From NCBI RefSeq assembly GCF_053078305.1, contig NZ_CP166879.1: DNA of 64,000 bases. One strand, 5' to 3'. The position numbers and the translations under genes are program-made. Every line of letters begins with the position of its first letter. Position 1 is the first letter of the stretch. The notes beneath the pieces were generated by a model that worked only from the letters and a program-made list of their open reading frames with translations, did not search any database and was not told the origin of the DNA. Below, one piece after another: positions 3,294 to 62,645 of this stretch.

Positions 3294-5012
3294 TTATAAT
3301 GGAAAATACTCAAACCCCGAAGCTCCTGACGACACATACTCACCCACGCTGACTGTACGCCACTGAGAACCATCAAATGTCACCTGAAGCGGCCTGTAAG
3401 AAACCGATATCACACCATCTGCTCCTCTACTTTTCAGACCAGTAATCACAGCTCCTATACTCAGGCTTATTGACAGAAAACCAGAGCTCTCTTCTGCTCT
3501 GTAAGTCTGTTCATTACCCAGCCTGATACCCACAACCCGGCTCTTCCCGTCTGATGCCCCGGGCGGCCCCATCGGCCCGGTTTCTCCACGCTCACCTCTG
3601 GGACCGGGGTCGCCTTTCTCCCCTTTCGGTCCCTGCGCTCCCCGCGGACCAGCGGGGCCTGTTGCTCCCGTTTCACCTTTCGGACCCTGTGCTCCGGGGT
3701 CACCTTTCTCTCCTTTCGGACCGGGAACACCACCTCCTGCTGCAGCCTCTTCTGCCTTTGTTTTCGCTTCATTTGCCACATCCATTGCCGCCTTCACGGC
3801 CTTCGGCGTGGCTGCCTTTGTTTCGTCATTACTGCCAGTATCACTGCTTAACTGCACCACACCTTTCTGCGTCGTGCTGGCATCCCGCTGGCTGACCGTA
3901 TCCGGTTTGTTTTTTGTGCTGTAATCCACCCGCCAGTGGAAATACCGTGTGTCGCCGTAAACCGTACAGGTACAGACCGTGCCATTAATAAACCCCGTTG
4001 CACCGTATTCGCCAATGGTGACCCGGACTATGGCAGCCTCATACGTTCCCATCACCTCAATGACACAGCCACCCAGATTGAGTTTTCCCGGTCCGACATC
4101 CGTGATGACTTTATTCATTGACGCAAGCAGTGATGCCTTCATCATCCAGTAAGGCTGGTCAAATGCCCCTTTTTCTTTCAGCCAGGCAACAAACTCGCGT
4201 GTTTTCCATTCACCGGCCCCCGTATGAATGTCCCGCCCGTATACTCTGGCTGCTCCCACGGTGTTCAGAAACTTCACCTTATCCGGGATATCATCACCGT
4301 TTTTCGCTTTCTCCAGGCATCCGTCCGCTTTGTCCATTGCCGCTTTCACCGCTTTCGGCGTGGCTGCCTTCGTTTCATCATCACTGTCCGTTGCGCTGCT
4401 TAACTGCACAATTCCCTTCTGTGCCGTCGTCGCATCCGGCCCTCCCGGCTCGCCTTTTTCGCCCTTCTCTCCCCGTTCACCTTTCACACCCTGAAGCCCC
4501 TGTGGTCCTGTCTCACCACGCTCACCCTTTGGCCCCCGCTCGCCGGTATCGCCTTTTGGCCCGGGAATACCCTGCGGCCCGGTGTCCCCCTTATCCCCCT
4601 TCGGTCCCCGCGCATTCTCTGCCCGTTTCTTCGCTTCCTCTGCACTCGCCGCTGACGCTTCCGCACGTTTCAGGATTTCCGCTGCCACCGCTTCCAGCTC
4701 TGCAAGGGCTTTCGGGTAATACTGTGCGTCTTCCAGGTCCATCAGAAATTTATTCAGCGTTCCCGGTGCAGAATCCGCCTTCACCAGAATGTCACCCACA
4801 TATGACGGCGCGTACCCTTCCGTGTTCAGCGTCACCCGGTACAACCCCGGCTCAACATCCATACTGTAACTGCCGGTTTCCCCCGGCTGACCATACGCCA
4901 CCGTGGTGACAATCACCATCTCCGTTGTGCGGCGCGCTTTCAGCTCTATCGTGCATCCCGGTACTGGTTTTCCCGTACCATCCTTCAGCACACCCGATAT
5001 TCTGACTGTCAT
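3294..5012 (-). CDS. stf: Side tail fiber protein with collagen-like G-x-x repeats
   Basis: Two blocks of [13 protein letters not shown]... repeats; conserved [10 protein letters not shown] motif twice; follows J. Confidence 0.75.
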
Positions 5013-25449: not shown

Positions 25450-25917
25450 CTAGTTAATACACTGAGTGCGGATATATTCCTTCGCCCCTTCCAGCTGCTT
25501 CTGCATTGTCATCAACCGTTCTCTGAGGATGAAATAATCCCGTTCAGCGGTGTCTGCCAGTCGGGGGCCGGTTGCATTATCCACGCCGGAGGTGGTGGGG
25601 GCTTCACGCACGGAGCCTGGACAGGTGGCTTTAACCCGCAGGCGCTTACGACCAGCGGCAACATCAGCACGCAGAGTTTCATTTTCAGCTCTCGCATCGG
25701 CTAATTCCCTCGAGTATTTAGCATCGAGCGCAGCAACATCGCGCTGGCGCTGCTGCATATCAGTAATGGTTGCGTTTGCCAGCTCCAGCTCTCTGGCTTT
25801 TTTATCGCGCTGCGCTTTGTAGGTGATGGCGTTATCGCGGTAATGATTCAGCCCCAGACTAAGCGCACCACAGGCCACCAGCAGGACAATAATCACCACA
25901 CACAGAACACGGTTCAT
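25450..25917 (-). CDS. Rz: i-spanin Rz
   Basis: ...[45 protein letters not shown]... matches lambda Rz. Confidence 0.9.
25512..25697 (-). CDS. Rz1: o-spanin Rz1 lipoprotein, embedded in +1 frame of Rz
   Basis: ...[27 protein letters not shown]... matches lambda Rz1; lipobox VSAC. Confidence 0.85.
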
Positions 25918-26849
25918 ATCACCACCATTTCACTGTTTTCTTTTTCCAGACGTTTTTTTGCAACAGCGAAATACCGGTCATCCTTTTCTATTCCGGTAAA
26001 CCGTCTCCCCGTCCGGATACATGCAACACCTGTTGAACCACTCCCCATAGTAAAATCCAGTACCCTGTCGCCAGGGTTGCTGTACGTCTGAATCAGCTCT
26101 TCCAGTAATGCAACTGGCTTCTGGGTCGGATGCCATCGCTCCCGCTCCCGCGCGTACTCCAGAATATTTGCGCGGTATTTTTTCCCCTGAGGGAGATTAA
26201 AAACCACAGTGCCGTAACCGGAATTCACTTTGCACATTTCTTCATATGTCATGAAACCCGGCATACGGTCGATACCAAAGCGTTTAATTAACTCGTTGTA
26301 CGTATCCTGTGAGCAGAGGGAAAACTGGACTGTGTTCACGCGAAAAAAATGCTCTGCCCGACAGTGCCCCAGTGTTTTGTTAACTTCCTTGTCTGTCCTG
26401 TGGCCAATGAAAGAAAGGATATTTCGGGCGTACTCCCTCAGCGGGTGGTTTTTCTCACTGTCATATTTTTTCCGGAAAACAACGATATCCTCGAATAAAG
26501 ATACAGGTGCTTTTTTTACTGAAAGCGGGTTGGGGAAATGCTCCTTCTTCCACACCATACGATATAAAAACGGCAGGTTTTTATCCGCCAGAGTAATCAT
26601 CGTGCTTGTATGCGGCTCCTGGCTGAACATGACCAGCACACCGCCCACCCTCAGCAGTCGTTCGCACTGTGTGAAAATATCTTCAGGATTTAAGGCATCG
26701 TCCCATGCTGTCGTACTCTTATCCCATGTACGGAGTGTAAGCCCTTTAATGGTTCCATACGGCGGGTCACATAAAACCAGGTCAACACTTCCCGGTAGTA
26801 ATGAAGGCATAACATCAAGACAGTCACCGGAATACAGTACACATTTCAT
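25914..26849 (-). CDS. DNA methyltransferase, beta-class (DPPY, N6-adenine or N4-cytosine); stop overlaps Rz start
   Basis: [10 protein letters not shown] near N-terminus; HPTQKP and FTMGSGSTG (SAM-binding) near C-terminus; ATGA overlap with Rz. Confidence 0.75.
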
Positions 26850-27341: not shown

Positions 27342-27875
27342 TTATCTGTCGATTTCCCAGCACGCCAGCGCGCTCTCCTGGTCTCTCCGGGATACCTGAC
27401 CGTAACAGTTATTTGAGCGAATACGGCAGTCTCTGCCACCGTCCTTAATCCACCAGCGAATCGCCTCACACGCTCCCCTGCGATCGCCTGCATTAATTCG
27501 TTTATAAAACGTCGACGGGAAACACTTACCTGGGCCAATGTTGTAAGGACAGAATGACGCGATCCCCGCTTTCTGGGGTTCAGTCAGTGGCACTTTGATG
27601 TTTTTCGCCACCCATGCCAGCGCCTTATCACGTTCAATGGCGTTAACCTGGTCGCATTTTTCCTTCGACAGCTTCATGCCAGGGACGACAGGCTTACCAT
27701 CCACCCGGGTGGCACCACGGCAGATGGTCCAGATACCCGCACCATCACGGTATGCCGTGCTGTGGTTACCTTCTTTTTCGTCAAGAAACTGGTCGAGGAT
27801 TTCAGGCGCAGGCGCACCTGCGGCAATCAGCGCCAGAACAGCAGCTGACAGGCCGTATTTGATTTTTGCGTTCAT
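27342..27875 (-). CDS. R: SAR endolysin (phage lysozyme with N-terminal signal-anchor-release domain)
   Basis: N-terminal weakly hydrophobic Gly/Ala-rich TM (LSAAVLALIAAGAPAPE) then lysozyme-like body; pinholin partner upstream. Confidence 0.8.
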   Translation of the reverse strand: MNAKIKYGLSAAVLALIAAGAPAPEILDQFLDEKEGNHSTAYRDGAGIWTICRGATRVDGKPVVPGMKLSKEKCDQVNAIERDKALAWVAKNIKVPLTEPQKAGIASFCPYNIGPGKCFPSTFYKRINAGDRRGACEAIRWWIKDGGRDCRIRSNNCYGQVSRRDQESALACWEIDR

Positions 27876-27911: not shown

Positions 27912-28898
27912 CTAAATACGCACTTTAAGATAAGTCAGCCCCGGCTGGATCCAGCCATCAGGCTCTTTCTTAAAGGGTGGCGTATTGAAATCACAAAGAA
28001 GAGCCTCCCGCACCGCAGCATCCCTGTCTGCACCACTGGCAAGTGCTTCAATCTCTGCCGCCAGCTGCAGATATCCCATGCAGCGACCAATGCGCTTCAT
28101 CAGCCCCTGTTTTTTATTGTTCTTCAGGTAATCAATGGCAAATTCAATGAGCGTCTCACTGTGCTGGTGCGATGGCGGTGTTACTTTTCCATTTTCTGAT
28201 ATGGTGATTTTCCCGTCATCACCGGATACAACAAAGGATGGCCGGTTACACTCCCGTTCCTGGTTTTTGTCCGACACAGGCACAGTAAAATCACTTTCAT
28301 GCCCGTTTTTACGACAGTCCTCGCCACGTACCGCAGCAAATACCGACAAGGCATACTCCTTTGCTCTCGCTTCATAGTCGCTGAATGTTGTTTTCGGATC
28401 GTAGTCTTCCCTGTACATAACCGACAGAACTTCCTCATGATCAATATGAACACTGACCACGCTGCCTATTCTTTTGGTCAGCACAAGACGAGAATCTTCC
28501 CCGACTTTCACTCCTGGTGTCACACGTGCCGGAAGCTCCACATTAACCATCGCGCTCTGCACATCATCAGGCGCATTTTTTACCGGTTCGTTGACCTTTT
28601 CACGCCCCGGGTAAGTGGCGATTTTTTCCGGCATTGTCCATGAAGAAATATTCTGAAAGCCACATCGCGCAGTCCCTTCGCGTAATCCGAGAGCCGCATC
28701 CATGAAAAACTGCTTCGCCTGTTTTTTCGCCTCAGCTTCGTAAAATTCCAGCGTGGCACCTTCAGTACGGTCAAGACTAATCGCCACATATGGCGACAAC
28801 AACGACGGCTGACCGGCAATTTCCAGTGCCACCGTAACAGTTATCTTATCCGGGTAATGATTTATCCCTTTTACAACCAGTTCATATTTGTTATTCAT
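27912..28898 (-). CDS. Unknown 328-aa protein inserted between holin and endolysin
   Basis: MNNKYELVVKGINHYPDKITVTVALEIAG...; GGGGAGAG RBS; start 5 nt after S stop; no TM or signal peptide; no motif I can assign. Confidence 0.7.
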   Translation of the reverse strand: MNNKYELVVKGINHYPDKITVTVALEIAGQPSLLSPYVAISLDRTEGATLEFYEAEAKKQAKQFFMDAALGLREGTARCGFQNISSWTMPEKIATYPGREKVNEPVKNAPDDVQSAMVNVELPARVTPGVKVGEDSRLVLTKRIGSVVSVHIDHEEVLSVMYREDYDPKTTFSDYEARAKEYALSVFAAVRGEDCRKNGHESDFTVPVSDKNQERECNRPSFVVSGDDGKITISENGKVTPPSHQHSETLIEFAIDYLKNNKKQGLMKRIGRCMGYLQLAAEIEALASGADRDAAVREALLCDFNTPPFKKEPDGWIQPGLTYLKVRI

Positions 28899-28902
28899 CG
28901 CT

Positions 28903-29118
28903 TTACTCTCCCCGGGCCGCCTTACGCCGGTCTTCTCTGATTTTAAAATACAGGTTCGTCAGGTATGTCAGCAGACCAAACAGCAGACTCCCCAGCACGC
29001 CTATTGCCGCCCACTGAGACGGGGAAACCCTGTCCAGCAACTGCAGGAACCAGTAGCCCGTTCCCACCGCTGACGTGGTGTATGACACACCTGTTGTGAT
29101 TTTTTCCATCTGGTACAT
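28903..29118 (-). CDS. S: Class II pinholin (phage 21 S-like), dual-start motif MYQMEK
   Basis: ...[51 protein letters not shown] matches S21; GGGAGACGGGG RBS. Confidence 0.85.
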
Positions 29119-29194
29119 ACCCCGTCTCCCGCAATCCGGAAGCTCACAACAATATAAAGACCACCGGCACACACCGATGGTCCCTTGCGCATGC

Positions 29195-29440
29195 TTACAT
29201 CATCATGTCGCTGTCAGGTGTGGGTTCACCGCCATCTGAAGCACTCCCCTCACCCGCAATGCCTTCCGGCTCCGGAACTGCCGGTGCGCCCAGCAGTTCA
29301 TCCAGAATGGCATCCACTTCTGCATCAAGACGCGCCTCAAGGTTCTGGCGGAGTTTCTGTTTCAGTGCGCTCAGGACTTCTTCAGAGCGCAGGACTTCCT
29401 TCACTGCCTCTGCAGTGACCAGGGATGTAATTTCTGACAT
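29195..29440 (-). CDS. Hypothetical acidic 81-aa protein
   Basis: [30 protein letters not shown]... from internal ATG of track ORF 29195-29614. Confidence 0.4.
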
Positions 29441-29480
29441 GGGATTTTCTCGTCGAAAGGTGTGATTAAGAAAGTTGCAG

Positions 29481-29660
29481 CTAAATGAGCGGCTCTTCGG
29501 GTTTGCTTCCGGCTGACTGACTGGCGCTGATTTTCTCTGCGGCCCTTTTATCAATCTGCCTGCGCCAGAAATCGCGCACTGCCCTGTACCCACCCGAAAG
29601 AAGATACAGCACACAGACCGCCGTACAGAAGTACAGCATCACCTGATGAATAAATGTCAT
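29481..29660 (-). CDS. Hypothetical small membrane protein (59 aa), not in ORF track
   Basis: Own translation MTFIHQVMLYFCTAVCVLYLLSGGYRAVRDFWRRQIDKRAAEKISASQSAGSKPEEPLI. Confidence 0.4.
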   Translation of the reverse strand: MTFIHQVMLYFCTAVCVLYLLSGGYRAVRDFWRRQIDKRAAEKISASQSAGSKPEEPLI

Positions 29661-29798
29661 AATTTCTTACCGTTATGGTTGACAATAAAAACTGTTTTCA
29701 TTTAAAAAACAACCGATGTACGAAAGCATCTTTTCTTTACATTCTCCATTGGGATTACCTCCGCCAGCTTCCATTCCTGCCGCTGGCGGCTTTTTTTA

Positions 29799-31766
29799 TC
29801 ATGCCGCGACGTCCGCGTTGTTCACTTCCACCTTCACACTGTCAATCAGCAGCGTATATGCCGCCGCCTTTGATATGTCTGTCAGTTGCAGTTTGTCCGC
29901 CGACCCTGATGCCGGAGATTTCACCAGTGTGAACGGTGTACCCCGTTTCTCATCCAGTACCGGCATCACCTGAATGCTGTTGTTTCCGGCAAACTCAAAA
30001 GCCAGTGTGTGCCATCCGTTATCAAAGACCCCGAACGTATCCAGCTTCGCATTCTGCTTCTTGTGGTACATCGCGTTCAGGTTCGTCGCATCCGTCTGCA
30101 GGAAGAAGGACATCAGCATGTCGTTGCCTTCCTCTGACAGCGTCACTCCCTCCGGCAGGGACGGCAACTGCCAGTAAATACCCAGGGCAAACTGATTCGG
30201 CACCAGTGCGCCCGGCACCTTAAACCGCACGCTCACACGTCCGCCTTTCTTCAGCAACTCTGCTCCCTGCCCGGCGGCATCATGCTCCAGAAACCAGATG
30301 TGGCTTTCCGGTTTGTTCAGTTGCAGGGCCTTACCACCGGTGGCACCCTCATCACTGACCACAGCCTCAGCGATGTTTTTATCAACACTGTCTCCGCTCG
30401 CCGGTTTGTGATAATAGCGCCAGCCCTGTGATGCCAGGTCTTCACCGGACGCCAGCAGACTCATCAGGGTTCGGTTACTGACCGGGGCTTCCGGCTCTCT
30501 CTCCGGGCCTTCACCGGAAGGTCCGGTGGGCTTCACCGTATCAGGCTGTTTTCCGGTAATGAATTCAGCGGTTCTCCCGGCATGCACCAGAATCGCCGTT
30601 GCCAGACGGTCGGAAATAATCCCACGGCGTGCCCAGGTGCTGAAATGGCTGGCCCTGTCCACAGATGTCCAGGTCTTCTGGTCATTACGCCACTTTGAAC
30701 CGTAATAACCGACGGCTTCCAGGTCCGGGTCTTCTGCCGGGTCATTGGTCTGCACATTCGCACCATTCTCATCCGTCATTAACGGTACAAAGAAAATGTT
30801 CTGCGACTCCTTACCCTTATACCCTCCGTATACTGATGCATACCCTTCCGCATGACGCTGCTTCCAGAAATACGTTGTGTCCCCGCAAATCCACGGTACC
30901 GTTGATGCGCTGCCTCCTGTGCACTGTGATGCCTGACCGGCAAGGTCCGTTCTGAACTGATTCACCATCGCACTAAACAGCCCCGGATGCTGCGCATGCG
31001 TCCCCACTGCCGCATCACCTTCTCCCTGCATCCACACCACCGCAAGCAGACGGTTTTTCGGGTTCTTCGCCAGTGCGGCTTTAGTCCGGCTCACCAAATC
31101 CTGATACAGCGGCTTACCCACACCCCAGCGCAGTGAATTTTCCGATGCACCGGCTGATTCGCTGTATGTGCCGTCTGCACCCGTTGTGAATGCCGAAGCA
31201 CCACGGCAGCACGGAACCAGCAAAATGCCCGCATTCGCCGGTATAAACGGCAGCAGTTTTTTGGCGATATGCAGCCCCTGCCCCACGGTTCCGTACTGCC
31301 CCTTTGACAGGTCCGCTTTCGGATGGTTAAGACGGCTCATGTCCTGCACATCATGCAGACAATGGTCCGCCGGAATAATGTCGTTATACTTACAGGCGGC
31401 ACCGCCCGGTGTCACCGTACTGCGACGCGCCAGCTGCTTAATACGCGGGTCCGGACGGTCATATGTCTCCGGCAGCGGAAGGCCTTCACCATACGACATG
31501 CCGTTTGACTGCCCCGCCAGAACAACAACAAAGTAATACTCCGGTTCGCTGGTGGCGCTGATAACTGTGCCTTCTCCATCCGACGGCTTCACCACCACAG
31601 GTGTGGTGACATCACCTTCCGCCGCAATAGCCTGCATCAGGGTATAAGGCGTGATGGCCACCGGACTGCCAAATGGCTGCCACCCCTCCTTCAGTTTTTG
31701 AGTCAGTCGCTCCGCAAGGTCTGACGGCGACGCCGCCCTGACCACGTCATAGTGTTTAAATGCCAT
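29799..31766 (-). CDS. nanS-p: NanS-p-like sialate O-acetylesterase (DUF1737 N-terminus + SASA/SGNH domain)
   Basis: VVLAGQSNGMSYG catalytic-Ser motif; 655 aa; occupies the position seen downstream of stx in Stx phages. Confidence 0.7.
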   Translation of the reverse strand: MAFKHYDVVRAASPSDLAERLTQKLKEGWQPFGSPVAITPYTLMQAIAAEGDVTTPVVVKPSDGEGTVISATSEPEYYFVVVLAGQSNGMSYGEGLPLPETYDRPDPRIKQLARRSTVTPGGAACKYNDIIPADHCLHDVQDMSRLNHPKADLSKGQYGTVGQGLHIAKKLLPFIPANAGILLVPCCRGASAFTTGADGTYSESAGASENSLRWGVGKPLYQDLVSRTKAALAKNPKNRLLAVVWMQGEGDAAVGTHAQHPGLFSAMVNQFRTDLAGQASQCTGGSASTVPWICGDTTYFWKQRHAEGYASVYGGYKGKESQNIFFVPLMTDENGANVQTNDPAEDPDLEAVGYYGSKWRNDQKTWTSVDRASHFSTWARRGIISDRLATAILVHAGRTAEFITGKQPDTVKPTGPSGEGPEREPEAPVSNRTLMSLLASGEDLASQGWRYYHKPASGDSVDKNIAEAVVSDEGATGGKALQLNKPESHIWFLEHDAAGQGAELLKKGGRVSVRFKVPGALVPNQFALGIYWQLPSLPEGVTLSEEGNDMLMSFFLQTDATNLNAMYHKKQNAKLDTFGVFDNGWHTLAFEFAGNNSIQVMPVLDEKRGTPFTLVKSPASGSADKLQLTDISKAAAYTLLIDSVKVEVNNADVAA

Positions 31767-31963
31767 GAATCCTCCCGGTCGGGATAATGTTGTGAGTCAG
31801 ATAAGGGGCGGGCTGAAGTCCGGAAGTTACAGGACAATGGCAGGAGGAAGACTACAGCCCGCAATACGAAAAAGGCCGCGCAGTTGCGCAGAGTGATTAC
31901 TGTCGGGTATTATTCGCCAGCTGAAAAATTGATTACTTCACGTTTTGTTGTTTATTCCTTGCT

Positions 31964-31993
31964 GCCCGCATCTCACCATGCGGGCTTTTTTTA
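31964..31993 (+). terminator. Rho-independent terminator on + strand
   Basis: cccgcat-ctcacc-atgcggg hairpin followed by cttttttta. Confidence 0.5.
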
Positions 31994-32000
31994 TCCATAA

Positions 32001-32238
32001 GAAAGCCCCTCCGGAGAGGGGCTGGAGTAGCGCTATGTACCGTTCATTACATGATGCCGGGTGCCTCCCGGTGAGTTCAGCCCGGTGCCACCGAACCCGC
32101 GTCATTCTCGCTAACGATCATCAGAGACCATTCCGTACACCAGCCGCCCCTCCGCACAGGGGGATTCATCATGCAGAAATTTTTTAACAAATTCTCAGTC
32201 GGGAAGACAACCTTCAACTGACTGAATTGTGAGCAACA
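32001..32238. repeat. Structured repeat unit 1 (~238 bp), diverged copy of unit at 32489-32723
   Basis: Shared blocks: gcccctccggagaggggc hairpin, gccgggtgcctcccggtgagttcag, cccctccgcacagggggattca-ATG, ttttaacaaa, ctgaattgtgag. Confidence 0.7.
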
Positions 32239-32488
32239 TAGCATTTAACGGGGAACCTGTTTTCTGCAGTAAAAAGGCCCACCGGAGCGGACGGGCCTGG
32301 AAGGATAGCGGTCATGTGATGCCGGTTTCCCGGTAACTCAGCACCGGTATCTGAGTCAACGTTTTCTCTACTGGGTCATTTCCGATACGCCCTGCCTGCT
32401 GACAGGCTTTCATCACATCTGAAAATATAGCACCCTGACTGATACTGTAGTACCCAAGGTTCCAGAAACTGTGATGTATCCGGCACAG

Positions 32489-32723
32489 AAAAGCCCCTCC
32501 GGAGAGGGGCTGACGCTGCGTATCTGTATCATCATGCGCATGGTGCCGGGTGCCTCCCGGTGAGTTCAGTATCAGCACCTGAACCCGCACAGAAAGGATA
32601 AGGGATGTAACCAAACACCTGTCGCTGATATGCCCCTCCGCTCAGGGGGATTCACCATGCCAGTTTCTTTTAACAAACTCCCCGCAAATCAGACAACTGT
32701 CAACCGTCTGAATTGTGAGACAT
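32489..32723. repeat. Structured repeat unit 2 (~235 bp)
   Basis: Same block order as unit 1; hairpins preserved by compensatory changes (ccgcaca vs ccgctca loop). Confidence 0.7.
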
Positions 32724-32789
32724 TTAAAATTTTCGGGGCAACAGGAAGACAATCATCACGACACCGGCAACCAGCGACCGGCACCAGAT

Positions 32790-33725
32790 TTAACGTATGT
32801 GCACACAACCTGAACCGGCATCAAAAAACAAACCGTGCACTGACAGAAAACGGGAAACCTCCGTCCGCTGATCATCACTCATTAAGGACCACACAAAGGC
32901 GTTATGCTCATCTTCAAGTTTCCGTCTTCTTGTTTGCCTTACAAGCAACTCAGCCGTCACCTGTACAATGTCAATGACCACCTTCTCTTCAGCAATGTAC
33001 GGCCTGTTCCAGTTCTCTGTGTTAATCTTCTCCGTCACCGGCGCTGACTTTTTGCAAGTTTCCCCATTAAACCCGACGCCATAAACAACAACATCATCGC
33101 TTTGCTTTTCGTTATCAATAATGACGAATAATACAGAAACCGATGTATCAGCGAACCCGCCTGAAATCTGAACCAACTCAACAACGCGGTTGCCAAAATA
33201 CTGACGCATTGCCAGCTCACCACGCCTGTAACCAACCCCGGGAAAGCACAAAAAAAATGAAAATCTTGCCTTCATACTCGCCAGAACATAAAACGCGTCA
33301 TCCAGAACACCGGAGGTCTTTTTATAAGGCATCATCGCTGAAATCTTCTCCCTGATATCCGCGCTCTGTGCTTTGTACTGTAGCGAAAAAGGCGGATTCA
33401 TGATGACACAATCGAACGTGTCCGTGTCACTGACATCATCTATGGCGTTGAAGAAATTTTCATTGACCGTCTTCACTGTGGCATCCGGAAAGTTATCCGG
33501 GATATGCAACAACGGAGAGGCCTGTATATCCACAGCATACAGACTTCCCACCGTGAGAAACTGCTCCAGTTGCCCGGAGCCACACGCACCATCAAAAATA
33601 CTCAGGGGCAGATCACCACAATATTCCCGCACTTTTTCAGCGACAAACCGACGCAAAGGAACGGACGTGATGTACTCTGCGTATTTTCTGGCGACTTCGC
33701 GATTATTGGATTCCTGAAAAACCAT
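32790..33725 (-). CDS. Putative N6-adenine DNA methyltransferase, gamma-class-like (motif I before NPPF)
   Basis: IFDGACGSGQL (SAM-binding) then VIMNPPF; 311 aa, too small for a separate target-recognition domain; lies at stx-equivalent locus. Confidence 0.6.
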   Translation of the reverse strand: MVFQESNNREVARKYAEYITSVPLRRFVAEKVREYCGDLPLSIFDGACGSGQLEQFLTVGSLYAVDIQASPLLHIPDNFPDATVKTVNENFFNAIDDVSDTDTFDCVIMNPPFSLQYKAQSADIREKISAMMPYKKTSGVLDDAFYVLASMKARFSFFLCFPGVGYRRGELAMRQYFGNRVVELVQISGGFADTSVSVLFVIIDNEKQSDDVVVYGVGFNGETCKKSAPVTEKINTENWNRPYIAEEKVVIDIVQVTAELLVRQTRRRKLEDEHNAFVWSLMSDDQRTEVSRFLSVHGLFFDAGSGCVHIR

Positions 33726-33810
33726 TTGTGAAAGGCTCTGTGGTTGATATGCGCCGGGCGTGGCACGGAGACAAAAAAGGCCCGCAAAAGCGAGCCTGGG
33801 AAAATAAGTG

Positions 33811-33887
33811 TGGCGCGTTGTACTGGATTCGAACCAGTGACCGATTGCTTAGAAGGCAATTGCTCTGTCCGACTGAGCTAACAACGC
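33811..33887 (-). tRNA. argO: tRNA-Arg (anticodon UCU), argO-like
   Basis: Cloverleaf folded by hand: acceptor GCGTTGT/ACAACGC, anticodon loop CTTCTAA, T-loop GGTTCGAATCC, CCA end. Confidence 0.75.
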
Positions 33888-33900
33888 ATGATGCTGATAA

Positions 33901-33977
33901 TGGACCGCCATCGGGGACTTGAACCCCGCGCAGCCAGCTTCGAAGGCTGGCGCTCTGTCCCGATGAGCTAATGGCGG
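33901..33977 (-). tRNA. argN: tRNA-Arg (anticodon UCG as read), argN-like
   Basis: Acceptor CCGCCAT/ATGGCGG, anticodon loop CTTCGAA, T-arm CGGGGTTCAAGTCCCCG. Confidence 0.65.
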
Positions 33978-33986
33978 TATGTGATA

Positions 33987-34062
33987 TGGTGGCCCTTGCT
34001 GGATTTGAACCAGCGACCTGGCGATTATGAGTCGCTCGCTCTCACCACTGAGCTAAAGGGCC
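33987..34062 (-). tRNA. ileZ: tRNA with CAU anticodon, ileX-like (tRNA-Ile2 via lysidine, or Met)
   Basis: GGCCCTTTAGCTCAGTGGTGAGAGC...CTCATAA...GGTTCAAATCC...CCA; close to E. coli ileX. Confidence 0.75.
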
Positions 34063-34102
34063 GGGTGCAGGATAATAACGGTACGTAACTAATCCTGCAA
34101 TA

Positions 34103-35161
34103 TCATCCGTTCTGACTGGCTAAATCCTGAACTTCCCTGACCGTCTGCTCAAAACGTTCAGTCTCCAGCTCAACGCCAGTTGCACGACGCCCCAGCGCCA
34201 TCGCGGCTTTGACTGTCGAACCCGACCCCATGAAAAAATCTGCAACCAGGTCCCCCGGACGACTGCTCGCGCTGATTATCTGCTGCAGCATTTCTGCCGG
34301 TTTTTCGCACGGATGTTTCCCGGGATAGTACTGCACCGGTTTATGCGTCCACACATCCGTGTACGGCACCTGCGCCGTCACACCGAAATACCGCCGCAGA
34401 TGCTTATATTCACTCTGCAGTTCCGCATACTGCCGGTTCAGTGAAGTATATGTCTCCAGCAGCTGGTGGTGGGGCTTTTCCAGTTCACCCCGCTGATGCT
34501 TCTCTTCTGCCACCCGGGCAAACAGCGCCTGTAATTTCAGATAATCACTTTCGTTCGGCAGCTGCCACTGACTGGCACTGAACCAGTGCGACACCATGTT
34601 TTTCTTTCCTGTGGCATCCACTATCTGTTTTGCCGTTATCCCCAGGGCAGCGCGCGCATCACGAAAGTAAGCAATCAGCGGGGCCATCACATGCTGTTTC
34701 AGTGCCCTGCCCTTCGCCTCATACCCGGCATCTTTCGGACGATACGGCCCCTGATAATGTTCCGCGAACAGAATGCGCTCTGTGGCGGGGAAATACGCCC
34801 GCAGGCTTTCCTTGTTGCACCCGTTCCAGCGTCCGGACGGCTTTGCCCAGATGATATGGTTCAGCACACTGAAGCGTTCACGCATCATGATTTCAATGTC
34901 AGACGCCAGGCGATGACCACAGAACAGGTAAAGACTTCCGGCAGGTTTCAGCACCCGCCAGAACTGCGCCAGACACTGGTCCAGCCACTTCAGGTAATCA
35001 TCGTCGCCCTTCCACTGGTTATCCCAGCCCTCGGGCTTCACTTTAAAGTATGGCGGGTCTGTGACTATCAGATCGACAGAGTTTTCCGGTAAGGTCTGGA
35101 TAAATTCCAGGCAATCAGCGTTGATTAACTCACAACTGGATATTTTTACAGTATTAAGCAT
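34103..35161 (-). CDS. DNA methyltransferase, beta-class (DPPY ... FxGxG), 352 aa
   Basis: DLIVTDPPYF near N-terminus; DFFMGSGSTV near C-terminus. Confidence 0.75.
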   Translation of the reverse strand: MLNTVKISSCELINADCLEFIQTLPENSVDLIVTDPPYFKVKPEGWDNQWKGDDDYLKWLDQCLAQFWRVLKPAGSLYLFCGHRLASDIEIMMRERFSVLNHIIWAKPSGRWNGCNKESLRAYFPATERILFAEHYQGPYRPKDAGYEAKGRALKQHVMAPLIAYFRDARAALGITAKQIVDATGKKNMVSHWFSASQWQLPNESDYLKLQALFARVAEEKHQRGELEKPHHQLLETYTSLNRQYAELQSEYKHLRRYFGVTAQVPYTDVWTHKPVQYYPGKHPCEKPAEMLQQIISASSRPGDLVADFFMGSGSTVKAAMALGRRATGVELETERFEQTVREVQDLASQNG

Positions 35162-35311
35162 GGATCATTAAGCCTGTCTCTGATAGGCTCATTCTGCTTT
35201 TGCGCAAAGCAGTGGGCCTGAGGTTTGCTTGTGACCCCAACGCATGAGCAGATGGCTGGTGAGTGCCCCTAACACCCACCAGCCGCCCATTTACCACAAA
35301 TAAAAAAGCCT

Positions 35312-35509
35312 TCAGGACTGAAGGCGTCTGTAACAACCGAACTGATAGTCTGCCAGACCCGCCATAACAAGCTGGGTCAGTATTAACTGACAGCGTTCGC
35401 GTGAAAGGTAAGTATTCTGCGCAATCTCCCCGACTGTCGCCGGTTCGGTGACGCTTAATTCATTAAACACCACTCTGGCGGTTTCGGTCATATCCTGCTG
35501 TTTCAGCAT
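35312..35509 (-). CDS. Hypothetical small protein (65 aa); start uncertain
   Basis: MLKQQDMTETARVVFNELSVTEPATVGEIAQNTYLSRERCQLIL...; longer track ORF crosses a terminator hairpin so N-terminal extension rejected. Confidence 0.3.
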   Translation of the reverse strand: MLKQQDMTETARVVFNELSVTEPATVGEIAQNTYLSRERCQLILTQLVMAGLADYQFGCYRRLQS

Positions 35510-35632
35510 GTCTTTTTCCCTTTTCCGGTTAACGTGACACACCAATAACTCTTGTCGAAAAAGCCAGCAAGCTGAAAGACCCGTATTCGCAACCACCAGC
35601 GCGTTTACTGTACTGACGCGATTTTCGGACAT

Positions 35633-35660
35633 AAAAAAACCACCTGGCGGTGGTTTTTTC
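35633..35660 (-). terminator. tR'-like rho-independent terminator downstream of Q
   Basis: aaaaaaaccacctggcggtggttttttt palindromic hairpin with flanking A/T runs. Confidence 0.55.
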
Positions 35661-35720
35661 TTACTTTGCCATCGCGTACAAAATCGGCAAAATATCAGAT
35701 TTATACGAAACATACGCGAT

Positions 35721-36410
35721 TTAATTGACTTTTGCAATATCTCGTCGTGAAAAGGTCGCTTTTTGTTGCGCTCTTATTTTCACGGAGCAAATCAAGGATT
35801 CTCTATCGAGGCGCTTAAAAATATCGCACATCTCACGCCAGTAGTTCGCATAATTATGGCTCCAGTTATCAGGCTTAACTCCACACAGTCTGGCAAGCTC
35901 CTGTCTCTGGTAGACCTCACACCCGGTAACCCATCCTCTGACATCCTGTGCCGCCAGCCAGATCAACTTCTTCACACGCTCCAGCGTTTTCACTGCAATT
36001 TTTCTGGTACCAGACTGAGTTTTAAATTCATTCCACACCCACTGCGTTATCGCGATCTGATGCTCCCAGCAAATGTTTCCGCCATAACACCACAACAACC
36101 ACGCCTTCTGATGTTCTTCCAGTTCCAGAAGGGCACGCCGCCACGATGATGTTGCAAACTCAACAGGACTGACCAGCGCAATTGATGAGCCTTTCGCCAG
36201 TGATTGTTTACCCGGGATTGGGGGATTATCCCGCGTGATCATTTTTCCGGTTACCTCATCGCGGTAACGAATTTTTTTGCGTCTGTAACGCCCTGTATCG
36301 AACAGGGCATTTTCCTGCCAGGCTTCCAGTTGACCTTTTGTCGCCCCACTGAGATCCGCAGTGGCAATCATGAGTTGCTCACGAACAAACTGTAAATACT
36401 GGTTATTCAT
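35721..36410 (-). CDS. Q: Late antiterminator Q-like protein
   Basis: Position directly upstream of terminator and late genes, downstream of rusA; ~230 aa as Qin-type Q proteins. Confidence 0.55.
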   Translation of the reverse strand: MNNQYLQFVREQLMIATADLSGATKGQLEAWQENALFDTGRYRRKKIRYRDEVTGKMITRDNPPIPGKQSLAKGSSIALVSPVEFATSSWRRALLELEEHQKAWLLWCYGGNICWEHQIAITQWVWNEFKTQSGTRKIAVKTLERVKKLIWLAAQDVRGWVTGCEVYQRQELARLCGVKPDNWSHNYANYWREMCDIFKRLDRESLICSVKIRAQQKATFSRRDIAKVN

Positions 36411-36766
36411 GCACACCCCACCTCTGTAATTTTTATCTCCAGCCGTCCACCAGATACTGGCTTGCCACGTACAATATTGATTTCATCAAACTGCTCGTCA
36501 TCAATAAGCACTCCCGCATGCGTCAGCGCATCCAGCGGTGCTTTCAGAATATTGTCCAGGTCACGACGACGCTTATCCGGTGGCTCTGCAATAATTTTTA
36601 TTGCCAGCCGTCCGGACAGGCTTAATTTCAGCCGCTGCTGGCGAACAATAAGCGCCACTGCACGGCGATAACGCTCCCCGGCTTTTGATACAAAATATGT
36701 GCTGCCACGGCGTCGCCAGTAAGTGTTCACCGTCGGCGGGTAAGGTAAAACCAAATCTATGAGCAT
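36407..36766 (-). CDS. rusA: Holliday junction resolvase RusA
   Basis: ...PYPPTVNTYWRR...KRRRDLDNILKAPLDALTHAGVLIDDEQ...GGRLEIKITE matches RusA. Confidence 0.85.
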   Translation of the reverse strand: MLIDLVLPYPPTVNTYWRRRGSTYFVSKAGERYRRAVALIVRQQRLKLSLSGRLAIKIIAEPPDKRRRDLDNILKAPLDALTHAGVLIDDEQFDEINIVRGKPVSGGRLEIKITEVGCA

Positions 36767-38690: not shown

Positions 38691-38846
38691 TTACTTCTCA
38701 GATTCGTAGTCTACGAAGACAGCAACCTCCGTCTGGCCGGTTCGGATTCGTACCTCGCAGAGGTCTTTCCTCGTTACCAGTGCCGTCACAACAACGGTAA
38801 TACAGATGACGATCAGGGCGATTAACATCGCCTTTTGCTGCTTCAT
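38691..38846 (-). CDS. hok: Hok-family type I toxin (51 aa)
   Basis: MKQQKAMLIALIVICITVVVTALVTRKDLCEVRIRTGQTEVAVFVDYESEK; track ORF extends upstream (mok-like reading frame). Confidence 0.8.
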   Translation of the reverse strand: MKQQKAMLIALIVICITVVVTALVTRKDLCEVRIRTGQTEVAVFVDYESEK

Positions 38847-39136
38847 AGCCTGCTTCTCCTTGCCTTTCGGCACGTAAGAGGCTAACCTACGTTTGTGAAG
38901 CATAGATTGGGCCTCAGATTAATGTTAAGCGTCCTGCAAGACGCGTAATGTTAACTGGGGCTTTTCTCTGTCTGCCTTACGGCGGCATGCCCGAGGCAGA
39001 CAGCCTCAAGCACCCGCAGCAATTCTACTTAACTCTTCTTTCCCCGCAAACCGTTTTTATCCCCAGCGGCAAATCGAATACACCACCAGCGCCACCGCCA
39101 TTGCAATACCAACATTTGAGAAGGCCTCAGGCCAGC

Positions 39137-51985: not shown

Positions 51986-52146
51986 CTGTCGAAATTCTCA
52001 GGGCGTTATATTTGCTTAATGACCTGATAATCCGCTGTTAAACCTGTTCCAGATCAAATGCGTAAAGATGGGTAAAACTTCTGGGTGCCCTTACGCATTA
52101 TCATTATGCTGCTTAATTAATTACATCTGTCATAGAGAGTGACTCA

Positions 52147-52806
52147 ATGGATCGTATTGTTAGTTCTTCACATGACCGTACATCACTGCTTAGCACCCAT
52201 AAGGTGCTGCGTAATACCTATTTTCTGCTGAGCCTGACGCTGGCCTTTTCGGCGATTACCGCAACTGCCAGTACGGTGCTGATGCTGCCATCTCCGGGTC
52301 TGATTCTGACGCTGGTGGGTATGTATGGTTTGATGTTCCTGACCTATAAAACGGCGAATAAGCCGACCGGGATTATCTCCGCATTCGCCTTTACCGGTTT
52401 TCTGGGTTATATCCTCGGACCAATTCTGAACACCTATCTGTCTGCCGGAATGGGTGACGTAATCGCTATGGCACTGGGCGGAACGGCGTTAGTGTTCTTC
52501 TGCTGCTCTGCATATGTGCTGACCACCCGCAAAGATATGTCGTTCCTCGGCGGTATGCTGATGGCGGGTATTGTGGTGGTGCTGATTGGTATGGTTGCTA
52601 ATATCTTCCTGCAACTGCCTGCTCTGCATCTGGCGATCAGCGCGGTCTTCATTTTGATCTCCTCTGGCGCTATTTTGTTTGAAACCAGCAACATCATTCA
52701 TGGCGGTGAAACGAACTATATTCGTGCCACGGTTAGCCTGTATGTTTCGCTGTACAACATCTTCGTCAGCCTGCTGAGCATTCTGGGCTTCGCCAGCCGC
52801 GATTAA
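52147..52806 (+). CDS. yccA: Inner-membrane protein YccA (BAX inhibitor-1 family, FtsH modulator)
   Basis: [34 protein letters not shown]... Confidence 0.9.
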
Positions 52807-52896
52807 TCTCACCCGCTAACACTTTCATAGCCTCGCTTTATGCGGGGCTTTGTTTTTTGTTACACTGCCGGCAGTCTGATTAAGGTAGTAATAATT

Positions 52897-53226
52897 ATGC
52901 TGATCTTCGAAGGTAAAGAGATAGAAACGGATACCGAAGGCTATCTCAAAGAAAGCAGCCAGTGGAGTGAGCCGCTGGCAGTGGTGATTGCAGAGAACGA
53001 AGGGATTTCGCTGTCGCCAGAACACTGGGAAGTGGTGCGTTTTGTGCGTGATTTCTATCTGGAATTTAATACGTCTCCGGCGATTCGTATGCTGGTAAAA
53101 GCGATGGCGAATAAATTTGGCGAAGAAAAAGGTAACAGCCGCTATTTATACCGACTGTTTCCGAAAGGTCCGGCTAAGCAAGCCACCAAAATTGCTGGCC
53201 TGCCAAAACCGGTAAAATGTATTTAA
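52897..53226 (+). CDS. tusE: Sulfurtransferase TusE
   Basis: [36 protein letters not shown]... Confidence 0.9.
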
Positions 53227-53501
53227 CGGATACGAAAATCGGTTAATTCACCCGAGGGATGATGCGGCTCGCTGAGCACCCGTTCTACACGCGCAGAACG
53301 CGGGCCGCCACTCTTTAACCACTGCATTAATTTTTCTACCTGCCCTTCTTCACCGCAAGCAACCACTTCCACGCTGCCATCGTCAAGATTTTTGGCGTAC
53401 CCGCTTAACCCGAGTTTTTTCGCTTCGTACTGCGTGGTATAGCGAAATCCTACGCCCTGAACTCGCCCGTAAACCCAGGCAATTATGCAGACTTTCGACA
53501 T
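53223..53501 (-). CDS. yccX: Acylphosphatase
   Basis: [32 protein letters not shown]...; start trimmed to ATG at 53501. Confidence 0.9.
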
Positions 53502-53595
53502 TGCTGCTCTCCTTATCCTTAATGGACGCGTTGCAAATCCATGGAAAACTCCGGACAATGACGCCCATTTCTTTGCATCGACAGAAAAGTAAATT

Positions 53596-54786
53596 ATGAG
53601 TGTACGTTTAGTGTTAGCCAAAGGGCGCGAAAAATCATTACTTCGTCGCCATCCGTGGGTCTTTTCCGGGGCCGTTGCCCGCATGGAAGGTAAAGCCAGC
53701 CTCGGTGAAACCATCGATATTGTTGATCATCAGGGAAAATGGTTAGCACGCGGCGCTTATTCGCCAGCTTCGCAAATCCGGGCGCGCGTCTGGACGTTTG
53801 ACCCGTCTGAGTCTATCGACATTGCTTTTTTTTCCCGCCGTTTGCAACAAGCACAAAAATGGCGTGACTGGCTGGCGCAAAAAGATGGCCTCGACAGCTA
53901 TCGTTTAATCGCCGGTGAATCTGATGGCCTGCCGGGTATTACTATCGATCGTTTCGGTAATTTTCTGGTGCTGCAACTGCTGAGTGCTGGGGCAGAGTAT
54001 CAGCGCGCGGCATTAATTAGTGCCCTGCAAACGCTGTACCCGGAATGTGCGATTTACGATCGCAGCGATGTTGCGGTACGTAAAAAAGAAGGGATGGAGC
54101 TGACCCAGGGCCCCGTCACCGGCGAGTTGCCGCCTGCCCTGCTGCCGATTGAAGAACACGGCATGAAGCTGCTGGTGGATATTCAGCACGGACACAAAAC
54201 GGGCTACTACCTGGACCAGCGTGATAGTCGCCTGGCTACCCGCCGCTACGTTGAAAATAAACGCGTACTGAACTGTTTCTCCTATACCGGTGGTTTCGCC
54301 GTATCGGCACTGATGGGCGGTTGCAGCCAGGTTGTCAGCGTTGATACCTCCCAGGAAGCGCTGGATATTGCACGGCAGAACGTTGAGCTGAACAAACTGG
54401 ATCTGAGCAAGGCGGAGTTTGTCCGTGATGATGTCTTTAAATTGCTGCGTACTTATCGCGATCGCGGTGAAAAATTTGACGTTATCGTGATGGACCCGCC
54501 GAAGTTTGTTGAGAATAAAAGCCAGTTGATGGGCGCGTGTCGTGGCTATAAAGACATCAACATGCTGGCGATTCAGTTGCTGAATGAAGGCGGTATTCTC
54601 CTGACTTTCTCCTGTTCCGGTCTGATGACCAGCGATTTATTTCAGAAAATCATCGCGGATGCCGCAATTGATGCCGGCCGTGATGTACAATTTATAGAGC
54701 AGTTCCGTCAGGCAGCCGATCATCCGGTGATCGCTACCTACCCGGAAGGGCTATATCTGAAAGGGTTTGCCTGTCGCGTCATGTAA
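53596..54786 (+). CDS. rlmI: 23S rRNA m5C1962 methyltransferase RlmI
   Basis: [27 protein letters not shown]...; 396 aa. Confidence 0.9.
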
Positions 54787-55161
<375 letters not shown>

Positions 55162-55205
55162 TCCCTGAACAAATCCCCGGAAGGTTTTTGCCTTCCGGGG
55201 ATTTT

Positions 55206-55619
55206 TTATTTGGCCAGGCCCAGGCGAGGGATCTCAATAGCCGGGCAGCGATCCATCACCACATTCAACCCGGCATCCCGTGCCAGTACTGCCGCTTGCT
55301 CATTAATCACCCCCAGTTGCATCCAGAGGGTTTTCGCGCCAATGGCAATAGCTTCCTGTGCCACGCCCCACGCCGCTTCTGAATTACGGAAAACATCGAC
55401 CATATCGACCTTTTCCGGAACGTCTGCCAGCGTGCCGTACCCCTGCTGGCCCAGCAGCGTTTTGCCGGCAACTTTTGGCGAAACCGGAATGACGTGATAC
55501 CCCTGGTCGAGTAGATATTTCATCACGCGATAGCTGGGACGATCGGGTTTGTCGCTTGCCCCCACCAGCGCAATGGTGTGAGTGGACGTTAAAATGCCTG
55601 CAATATCGGTTTCTTTCAT
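55206..55619 (-). CDS. yccU: CoA-binding protein YccU
   Basis: [41 protein letters not shown]... Confidence 0.9.
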
Positions 55620-55791
55620 TATTTCCTCCAGACTGTTTCACAAAGTGTACGACAAAGCCGACATGCCAACCATGCAGCTAATACGAATGAATGAGAGCAA
55701 AAGCGGGAAATATGTCTATATGTTAGTAAGTATGATTAAAGAAAAATTTTGACACATTATTATTCGGGCGGTCTTTTGACAGGAGCTACCT

Positions 55792-56454
55792 ATGAAAACC
55801 GGCATCGTGACCACCTTGATTGCATTATGTTTGCCGGTATCCGTTTTTGCCACCACGCTGCGGCTTTCAACCGATGTCGATCTTCTGGTACTCGACGGCA
55901 AGAAGGTCTCCAGCTCTCTGCTGCGCGGTGCGGACAGCATTGAACTGGATAATGGACCGCATCAGTTAGTGTTTCGCGTTGAGAAGACGATTCATCTTTC
56001 CAATAGTGAAGAACGGCTGTATATCTCCCCACCGCTGGTGGTCAGTTTTAATACCCAGCTCATCAACCAGGTCAATTTTCGCCTGCCTCGCCTGGAGAAT
56101 GAGCGGGAAGCTAACCATTTTGATGCCGCGCCGCGCCTTGAATTGTTGGATGGCGATGCGACGCCGATTCCGGTAAAGCTGGATATTCTCGCCATTACCT
56201 CAACGGCAAAAACGATTGATTATGAGGTCGAGGTTGAACGCTATAACAAATCCGCGAAACGCGCTTCACTACCGCAATTTGCCACGATGATGGCAGATGA
56301 CAGTACGCTGCTTTCGGGTGTTTCCGAGCTGGATGCTATTCCACCGCAGTCTCAGGTGCTCACAGAACAACGGCTGAAGTATTGGTTTAAACTGGCTGAC
56401 CCACAAACGCGAAATACTTTCCTGCAGTGGGCGGAAAAACAACCATCTTCCTGA
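55792..56454 (+). CDS. yccT: UPF0319 protein YccT
   Basis: [34 protein letters not shown]... Confidence 0.85.
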
Positions 56455-56549
56455 GATTTTTGTGCCTGTGCGCAGGCTTTTTCGGTCTTTAACTTGCAGC
56501 GATAAGTGCTTACAGTAATCTGTAGGAAAGTTAACTACGGATGTACATT

Positions 56550-57008
56550 ATGGAACTGACGACTCGCACTTTACCTGCGCGGAAACATATTGCGCTGGTG
56601 GCACACGATCACTGCAAACAAATGCTGATGAGCTGGGTGGAACGACATCAACCGTTACTGGAACAACACGTACTGTATGCAACAGGCACTACCGGTAACT
56701 TAATTTCTCGCGCGACCGGCATGAACGTCAACGCGATGTTGAGTGGCCCAATGGGGGGTGACCAGCAGGTTGGCGCATTGATCTCAGAAGGGAAAATTGA
56801 TGTATTGATTTTCTTCTGGGATCCACTAAATGCCGTGCCGCACGATCCTGACGTGAAAGCCTTGCTGCGTCTGGCGACGGTATGGAACATTCCGGTCGCC
56901 ACCAACGTGGCAACGGCAGACTTCATTATCCAGTCGCCGCATTTCAACGACGCGGTCGATATTCTGATCCCCGATTATCAGCGTTATCTCGCGGACCGTC
57001 TGAAGTAA
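56550..57008 (+). CDS. mgsA: Methylglyoxal synthase
   Basis: [34 protein letters not shown]... Confidence 0.9.
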
Positions 57009-57039
57009 TATTGCACAGGTGGCAAACGCCACCTGTTTC

Positions 57040-59094: not shown

Positions 59095-59216
59095 GACTCT
59101 GTAGATCCACACGAAATTATTTCTTATCAGTGTAACCGTCAGAGAAAACGTGCTCCAGCCCAAAAAAACGTTACAATTGCCGCCCATTACTGAAAACCAC
59201 AGTAAAGCGAGGTTTT

Positions 59217-59663: not shown

Positions 59664-59672
59664 TCCACTAAT

Positions 59673-62427: not shown

Positions 62428-62603
62428 AAAATTCCTTTTAAAATCATAACATAAAAGAATGATTCACATTAACGGATCCGTTAAATACGAAAATAGGCAA
62501 CTTATTCTTTAGGGGCAAGATTAATTTATGTTTTCCCGTCACCAACGACAAAATTTGCGAGGCTCTTTCCGAAAATAGGGTTGATCTTTGTCGTCACTGG
62601 ATG

Positions 62604-62623: not shown

Positions 62624-62645
62624 ACTCACAGGGGCTGGATTGATT

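Follow-up and report, generated by a model that had tools for sequence, protein, structure and literature searches.

A predicted gamma-class DNA methyltransferase in the Shiga toxin cargo slot of a stx-negative lambdoid prophage of Escherichia coli

The start of a phage late operon lies within a 64-kb stretch of contig NZ_CP166879.1 (NCBI RefSeq assembly GCF_053078305.1). This whole stretch is referred to here as the window, and all coordinates are in window numbering. From the gene for the antiterminator Q through the structural genes everything is on the minus strand, and coordinates decrease along the late operon from its start. The order on that strand is Q, a small open reading frame (ORF), a beta-class methylase gene, tRNA-Ile2(CAU), tRNA-Arg(UCG), tRNA-Arg(UCU), a gene for a gamma-class methylase of 311 amino acids (aa), copies of a STnc100 small RNA (sRNA) gene, nanS-p, DUF1378, DUF826, a holin gene, a gene for a 328-aa protein, and an endolysin gene (Table 1). 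The slot between the last tRNA and nanS-p is the known moron site that holds stxAB in Shiga toxin (Stx) phages, and here a predicted orphan gamma-class methylase occupies it. We take this to be a lambdoid prophage of E. coli without stx whose late operon starts here under the control of Q, and give the best explanation set out below, taken as a whole, a probability of about 0.75.

What fills the slot, and where are its edges? A tblastn search of the window with Stx2A and Stx2B gave a best E of 0.76, that is, no stx. An earlier note on this DNA had described the toxin locus as occupied by a methyltransferase in a region without stx genes, and that description was borne out. A megablast search with positions 29000-36500 matched 389 phage records, mostly of Stx-converting phages, with 54–61% coverage at about 90% identity. 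The phage comparison set for the cargo comprised 50,697 phage records and the E. coli survey set 5426 complete genomes. Against the Stx2a phage LC567818, window positions 33762-35657 are 96% identical, a block that comprises the beta-class methylase gene, the three tRNA genes and the hairpin behind them. The similarity fades 20–40 nucleotides (nt) ahead of the cargo start codon. It returns 5' of the sRNA at a conserved box, 'TCACAATTCAG.C.GTTGA', and continues at 80–83% through nanS-p, with an extra 490 bp of sRNA copies in the window. From the break before the cargo start and the return at the sRNA box it follows that a cassette of about 1 kb, comprising the methylase ORF only, stands in place of stx2A-stx2B. 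The hairpin directly after the tRNAs is the last element held in common with Stx phages ahead of the cargo, as aligned with Stx2a_14040, 1720a-02 and another locus (L006), and the 61 bases at 33730-33790 are found again in about 900 genomes.

The remainder of the prophage has other affinities. Its structural genes are lambda/21/PhiR12-like (73% coverage, 92.5% identity), and its early region is a mosaic that phage records cover to 36–37% at most, at 83%. Neither module resembles its counterpart in Stx phages, and kinship with them therefore holds for the late control module only; the candidate idea that the whole prophage is a relative of Stx phages was rejected. The earlier note had offered either a toxin-negative relative or a cargo replacement. 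Replacement at the level of the cassette is seen against LC567818, but 'relative' is true of the module and not of the whole phage, and the replacement may have run in either direction.

The slot has been seen before. A site for moron insertion 3' of PR', flanked by sRNAs, was described in the Sakai prophages Sp3, 4, 5, 9, 10, 11, 15 and 17 by Tree et al. 2014 (PMC4104026). We found the framework of methylase, tRNAs, slot and nanS-p in 3317 of the 5426 complete E. coli genomes, at a median of two places and at up to 15, and most of these copies are without stx. In a spread sample the slot contained stx2AB with or without iraM, TerB with DUF3927, DUF3927 with a hypothetical gene, iraM, insertion sequence (IS) elements, or nothing. 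The parts that had been taken as the framework of Stx-converting phages are all present, and the late module is Stx-like, but the framework is generic to lambdoid prophages and not specific to those with stx.

The cargo gene in the window was found full-length in 11 of the surveyed genomes, mostly human Shiga toxin-producing E. coli (STEC) isolates, and always within the tRNA-to-nanS-p slot. At 90% clustering its product falls in a group of 212 sequences, of which one is present on at least 1000 contigs; the named members listed all come from E. coli. The phage comparison set contained no copy, save homologues of 40–44% in Streptococcus, Mannheimia and Fusobacterium phages. Relatives at about 40–50% identity belong to phages or prophages of Providencia, Mannheimia, Streptococcus and Fusobacterium. 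A 50% homologue from Providencia rettgeri prophages is placed not after Q but in the nin region, with the replication genes on one side and RusA on the other, so the methylase family sits in differing phage slots by genus.

The same cargo has been joined to different control genes. An identical 311-aa protein is encoded behind three unrelated Q families: PF06323, as in the window, DUF1133/PF06530, and PF03589. The junctions at which Q has been exchanged correspond to window positions 35656, at the hairpin after Q, and 33980, immediately ahead of tRNA-Arg(UCG). With PF03589 the beta-class methylase and tRNA-Ile2 are missing. There are diverged alleles as well. One of 78% aa identity keeps the order Q-tRNA-methylase-nanS-p in the same slot, behind another Q type and without a sRNA copy. 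Another of 61% aa identity (GCA_018047205.1, a short contig) has the upstream junction sequence alone in common with the window. At positions 1-811 of that contig an extra KilA-N-like fragment was seen 5' of the 61% allele, between two similar junctions each made of a hairpin and 'TTTTATACC.GCGC', which hints that morons may stack one after another at the slot. A junction motif, 'CCTTTTTTRTMTCYGYGCC', was considered as a repeated recombination signal and dropped; it has a single occurrence in the window and was matched in 21 of 100 shuffles as well.

Is the prophage, then, a decayed former Stx phage in which stx was recently lost, as a single event, by replacement in one lineage? The 96% identity of the methylase-tRNA block to Stx2a phages would fit such a history, as would the mostly human STEC carriers. 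We consider it improbable, however, since the window has no stx remnant, the structural and early modules are of other kinds, and most E. coli copies of the framework lack stx. The three Q families and the diverged alleles, one of them in the same slot behind another Q and the other with a common upstream junction, fit homologous recombination in conserved flanks and argue against a single recent loss of stx.

The cargo protein itself has FDGACGSG (motif I, aa 44-51) and NPPF (motif IV, aa 110-113). This is the gamma order, and both motifs are invariant in a 30-sequence family alignment. The protein matches phrog_6380, 'DNA methyltransferase', at E=1.5e-77, and PF02384 is precomputed on most of its homologues. 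An AlphaFold (AF2) model had a mean pLDDT of 90, and the 50 neighbours listed for it in the PDB are all adenine DNA methylases or methylase subunits of type I restriction-modification (RM) systems (PacII M, M.BseCI, CamA, HsdM), with E of about 1e-11, an unambiguous fold result. Judged from these matches and the model, DNA is the probable substrate. RefSeq already annotates the gene as a SAM-dependent DNA methyltransferase, and the cargo is an uncommon and uncharacterised but already annotated methylase. No restriction nuclease or specificity gene adjoins it, its flanks being the tRNAs and the sRNA genes. Membership in an RM or other defence system was rejected, as PADLOC gave weak methylase matches only (mad2, E=4e-7) and no partner genes. 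Because neither a nuclease or specificity gene nor a PADLOC system was found, we call the methylase an orphan. A place in the Hia5/Hin1523 family was likewise rejected, that family being Dam-like and alpha-class with DPPY at about 194, whereas the cargo is gamma with NPPF at 110.

Control of the operon would begin at Q. The homologous gene is named 'bacteriophage antitermination protein Q' by PGAP in the cargo-carrying genomes 2012EL-2448 and FHI_NMBU_11, and the Q of draft GCA_000736735.1, whose locus is 99.96% identical to the window, carries PF06323. NCBIfam returned no family for Q, nanS-p or the holin, and these were assigned through PHROGs, Pfam and the PDB instead. The late promoter PR' probably lies within about 90 nt after Q, where there is a TATAAAT box at about 35699-35705, read from the sequence, and a two-hairpin RNA of 60–70 nt (fold of 35628-35700, -25.7 kcal/mol, z=-4.7). 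A consensus promoter scan of 29600-36000 found no minus-strand sigma-70 site, and for this reason PR' is treated as putative. A terminator scan found 16 intrinsic terminators against 6.5 expected.

The hairpin after Q is also a junction at which differing Q modules, such as those of a Stx2a phage (L001) and of another locus (L010), meet the common downstream block, and a MazF/PemK-type toxin gene is joined there in 2012EL-2448. The segment 35628-35728 is a candidate for both a PR'-tR' unit and a second insertion point. The 106-aa gene that follows is called at the matching place in GCA_000736735.1.

How might these parts work together? Polymerase starting from PR', just 3' of Q, would be made resistant to terminators by Q after induction. 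It would then read through the string of terminators to transcribe the beta-class methylase, the three tRNAs, the slot cargo, nanS-p and the lysis genes in that order. Such read-through by Q-modified polymerase after induction is established for Stx phages (PMC7547250). The three tRNAs would serve the rare codons AUA, CGA/CGG and AGA/AGG. Behind the cargo the transcript would run through two intact genes of the STnc100/EcOnc27 family, both equipped with a terminator, and through a decayed copy. The cargo enzyme, probably in joint action with the two other late methylases, would methylate replicating phage DNA before packaging, and progeny would be shielded from restriction in the next host. 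Turnover of the cargo could proceed by homologous recombination in the tRNA/terminator block, the sRNA/nanS-p block and the hairpin after Q. We infer that the cargo is expressed late, under Q, and is silent in the lysogen because there is no sigma-70 consensus on the coding strand and a terminator lies directly upstream. A precedent is provided by M.EcoGI and M.EcoGII from prophages of E. coli O104:H4, non-specific adenine methylases which are unexpressed in lysogens and presumed active after induction alone (PMC5778455).

The main rival to Q-dependent late expression is that the methylase is a lysogenic-conversion gene with its own promoter, serving as an epigenetic regulator of the host or in superinfection exclusion and not in self-protection of the phage. 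Morons often bring a promoter and a terminator of their own and a deviant composition (PMC8065619). The cargo has a GC content of 0.468 against 0.526 for the prophage, is bracketed by a terminator upstream (33778-33797) and one downstream within the sRNA (32492-32511), and has been retained in human STEC isolates. Yet the coding strand has no sigma-70-like promoter, and the cargo ATG follows the upstream terminator after just about 50 nt. In addition, the related M.EcoGI and M.EcoGII are silent in lysogens (PMC5778455), and the Providencia homologues stand in the nin region amid phage replication and late-control genes. Taking both sides together, we regard a lysogenic-conversion role as unlikely.

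Two further methylases are encoded in the late operon. The 352-aa enzyme ahead of the tRNAs has DPPY at aa 35-38 and FxGxG at 310-314, which is the beta-class order. It is 98% identical in aa sequence to the enzyme of phage 1720a-02 (KF030445), which Murray et al. 2018 describe as very similar to the non-specific M.EcoGII (PMC5778455). The third methylase gene is inserted directly upstream of the Rz-type gene and overlaps its start. It is missing at the pre-Rz point in 2012EL-2448, and in FHI_NMBU_11 a 'DNA-methyltransferase' is annotated beside a 'lysis protein'. Full-length copies were found in eight of the 5426 genomes, six of which also have the gamma cargo, and in two (FHI_NMBU_11 and JNEC-KY174) both are in one prophage. 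As a separate observation, this gene occurs mostly in STEC strains that also carry the slot methylase, sometimes in another prophage of the same genome.

A bolder and tentative idea, which we think doubtful, is that the three enzymes make up a layered 'methylation armour' that Q switches on, the 311-aa gamma enzyme representing a phage-wide, uncharacterised family whose recognition domain is minimal and whose specificity is relaxed or unusual. If true, the stx slot would take cargo useful to the phage as well as cargo useful to the host, and the co-occurrence of the two uncommon methylase morons in the same strains of STEC would suggest that they are selected jointly.

Several observations weigh against late, Q-driven methylation of phage DNA by the cargo. 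The Pfam matches are weak (N6_Mtase, E=0.0026; MTS, E=0.001), and a homologue is labelled 'predicted RNA methylase' by one source, the JGI annotation. Only about 100 residues lie beyond the catalytic core, and among the closest folds some belong to enzymes that have large recognition domains and others to subunits dependent on a separate specificity subunit; target recognition by the cargo is therefore left without explanation. The cargo ATG has no obvious Shine-Dalgarno sequence, and the empty promoter scan counts against PR' itself. Finally, if an M.EcoGII-like enzyme is truly non-specific, the need for two further adenine methylases is not obvious.

Some of these points would suit a different enzyme altogether, one that methylates RNA or protein in the manner of HemK/PrmC or RsmC, which share an NPPF/Y motif. 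The best Pfam match is indeed the 'MTS' small methyltransferase domain, NCBIfam gave a weak PrmC match (E=2e-4), the JGI label points the same way, and M.EcoGII is able to act on RNA in hybrids (PMC5778455). Set against this, the listed structural neighbours are without exception enzymes or subunits of adenine DNA methylation, the PHROG family is annotated as DNA methyltransferase, and the family is consistently phage-borne. A substrate other than DNA is thus very improbable.

The three tRNA genes (CAU, UCG and UCU anticodons) that the earlier note had proposed downstream of Q were all called by ARAGORN, and their Rfam scores exceed the gathering score of 29 bits. CCA is encoded in each of the three. 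The CAU, UCG and UCU genes match the Stx2 phage copies at 75–76 of 76, 74 of 77 and 76 of 77 bases, respectively. The CAU gene is base-identical to the gene annotated by PGAP as tRNA-Ile in 2012EL-2448 and FHI_NMBU_11, so the label 'ileZ-like' is right. Rare codons are enriched in the late genes. Per 1000 codons, late genes against flanking host genes have 7.3 and 2.4 ATA, 9.4 and 2.4 AGA, and 7.6 and 1.0 AGG.

About 1 kb of non-coding DNA separates the 311-aa methylase gene from nanS-p. It had been described as non-coding repeats, and these repeats are sRNA genes: two STnc100 genes and one relic, the last scoring below the gathering score of 47 bits for STnc100 (RF02076). The similarity between the two full copies is about 72%, and both finish with a terminator of their own. 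The copy adjoining nanS-p corresponds to the element found 3' of stx2B in Stx2 phages, with a homologue in Stx2a phage L001 at 4469-4683. This element after stx2B overlaps an Hfq-bound sRNA, EcOnc27/sRNA103 (PMC12711010; PMC12370729), and has kinship with the PasD sRNAs (Zhu, Shabalina and Storz 2026 preprint).

A strong plus-strand terminator, matching no Rfam family, faces the proximal STnc100 copy and may be where a convergent sRNA like those reported by Tree et al. 2014 has its 3' end. Searches for AgvB and AsxR (RF02702, RF02703) gave no match with cut-offs of E<=1 over 31500-34200 and E<=10 over 31780-32010. An AgvB/AsxR anti-sRNA convergent to STnc100 was rejected, the plus-strand terminator hairpin alone being seen.

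The nanS-p gene, proposed earlier as a NanS-p-type esterase ahead of the holin, carries the domains expected of one (Table 1). Its product matches NanS (3PT5) at E=3.6e-118 and the lectin-like C-terminal domain of NanS-p (6YP6) at E=9e-61. The SASA motifs are intact, with GQSN at aa 85-88, QGE at 247-249, and SHFS with the catalytic His at 373-376, following the block definitions of the SGNH review (PMC9487903). The protein is an intact, predicted esterase. Neither of the outcomes that the earlier note named as refuting it, rejected tRNAs or a missing esterase catalytic motif, was seen.

Table 1. Features of the prophage, listed from high to low coordinates
Feature	Position	Strand	Basis
Late antiterminator Q, 231-aa ORF from GTG, PF06323-type	35721-36416	-	phrog_304 'anti-termination protein Q-like', E=3e-104, full length
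Candidate PR' region, short two-hairpin RNA leading to an intrinsic terminator (hairpin 35639-35651 and U-run)	35633-35728	-	
Small conserved ORF, 106 aa, function unknown	35312-35632	-	phrog_331, E=2e-47
Terminator-like hairpin after the 106-aa ORF	35308-35325		Terminator scan
Beta-class DNA adenine methyltransferase, 352 aa, M.EcoGI/GII-like	34103-35161	-	PADLOC MTase_II, E=3e-163; phrog_67/6025
tRNA CAU, ileZ-like tRNA-Ile2	33987-34062	-	ARAGORN; Rfam 72.5 bits
tRNA-Arg(UCG), argN-like	33901-33977	-	ARAGORN; Rfam 58.2 bits
tRNA-Arg(UCU), argO-like	33811-33887	-	ARAGORN; Rfam 71.7 bits
Terminator-like hairpin with T-run, directly after the tRNAs	33778-33797	-	Terminator scan
Orphan gamma-class N6-adenine DNA methyltransferase (predicted), 311 aa, in place of stx2AB	32790-33725	-	
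STnc100-family sRNA gene, distal copy, own terminator 32492-32511	32483-32689	-	Rfam RF02076, 134.9 bits
Decayed STnc100-like copy, terminator-like hairpin 32275-32298	32269-32442	-	Rfam 28.5 bits, below gathering; aligned to full copies
STnc100-family sRNA gene adjoining nanS-p, terminator 32004-32023	31993-32203	-	Rfam RF02076, 164.2 bits
Convergent intrinsic terminator	31964-31985	+	Terminator scan; fold z=-3.5
nanS-p, prophage 9-O-acetyl sialate esterase (predicted), 655 aa	29799-31766	-	Pfam DUF1737, SASA and DUF6645
DUF1378	29481-29660	-	96% nucleotide identity to annotated gene of 2012EL-2448
DUF826	29195-29440	-	96% nucleotide identity to annotated gene of 2012EL-2448
Class II holin	28903-29118	-	phrog_9876 and phrog_20
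Endolysin	27342-27875	-	phrog_7, E=3e-62
Third late-operon methylase, beta-class, 311 aa, GC 0.47	25914-26849	-	phrog_67, E=3e-70; DPPY aa 28, xxGSG 267
Rz-type lysis gene	25450-25917	-	
tRNA-Ser(UGA), left flank of prophage	1860-1947		

The prophage is integrated between serT, the gene for tRNA-Ser(UGA), and yccA. The right flank, 52000-64000 (yccA, rlmI, helD, yccS and others), is core E. coli sequence, with up to 99.9% identity to complete genomes. Within the lysis region, flanked by the holin and endolysin genes, positions 27912-28898 on the minus strand encode a 328-aa protein (phrog_1085) of unknown function. This segment is unlike the prophages of 2012EL-2448 and FHI_NMBU_11, which have other small genes there. 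A sok antitoxin RNA (Rfam, 117.7 bits) at 38841-39015 on the minus strand marks a locus of the hok/sok toxin-antitoxin type in the nin region.

The architecture, the sRNAs, the tRNAs and nanS-p have been described before, and current understanding is unchanged by this locus, which represents cargo swapping at a known site and not a new kind of system. The stx site is nonetheless medically important, and its alternative occupants and exchange points help to explain how stx moves between phage backbones. The locus provides a clean example of a swap, with exact cassette boundaries, identical cargo behind three Q modules, and a variable number of STnc100 copies. It also flags an uncharacterised family of small gamma-class methylases that could be of use or relevance to phage anti-restriction.

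Comparison with known systems sets the locus in context, beginning with its nearest relatives. The complete genomes 2012EL-2448, FHI_NMBU_11, JNEC-KY174 and nine others have the same cargo methylase in the slot at 98.4–98.9% identity, and over 6.9 kb draft GCA_000736735.1 matches the window at 99.96% identity. Some carriers differ in having other Q types, a frameshifted beta-class methylase gene, an IS1 insertion, or a MazF-type insertion after Q. The Stx2 phages (Stx2_14040, LC567818; 1720a-02, KF030445; 933W/Sp5-type) share the order from Q to endolysin around the slot, with 96% nucleotide identity in the methylase-tRNA block, 98% aa identity in the methylase and 80–83% identity in nanS-p. 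Unlike them, the prophage in the window lacks stxA and stxB and has the gamma methylase in the slot, has 2.5 sRNA copies rather than one, differs in Q type, and has unrelated structural and early modules.

The non-Stx prophages of strain Sakai (Sp3, Sp4, Sp9, Sp10, Sp11 and Sp17; PMC4104026) likewise have a cargo coding sequence downstream of Q and PR', and sRNA genes between the cargo and a conserved esterase ORF. The window differs from these in its cargo, in having no detectable AgvB/AsxR, and in carrying the sense sRNA in tandem copies. With M.EcoGI and M.EcoGII the 352-aa gene shares the beta-class order and its prophage location, its closeness to M.EcoGII being judged through the 1720a-02 enzyme and the description given by Murray et al. 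2018. The slot cargo, in contrast, is of gamma class and does not belong to the M.EcoGI/GII family. A last analogy is with Mu-like prophages, in which the hin1523, hia5 and nma1821 methylases stand in place of mom (Drozdz et al. 2012, PMC3299994). There too an adenine methylase occupies a syntenic late cargo position, but those enzymes are Dam-like with DPPY at about 194 and the phage type and slot are different, whereas the cargo in the window has its NPPF at 110, after motif I at 44.

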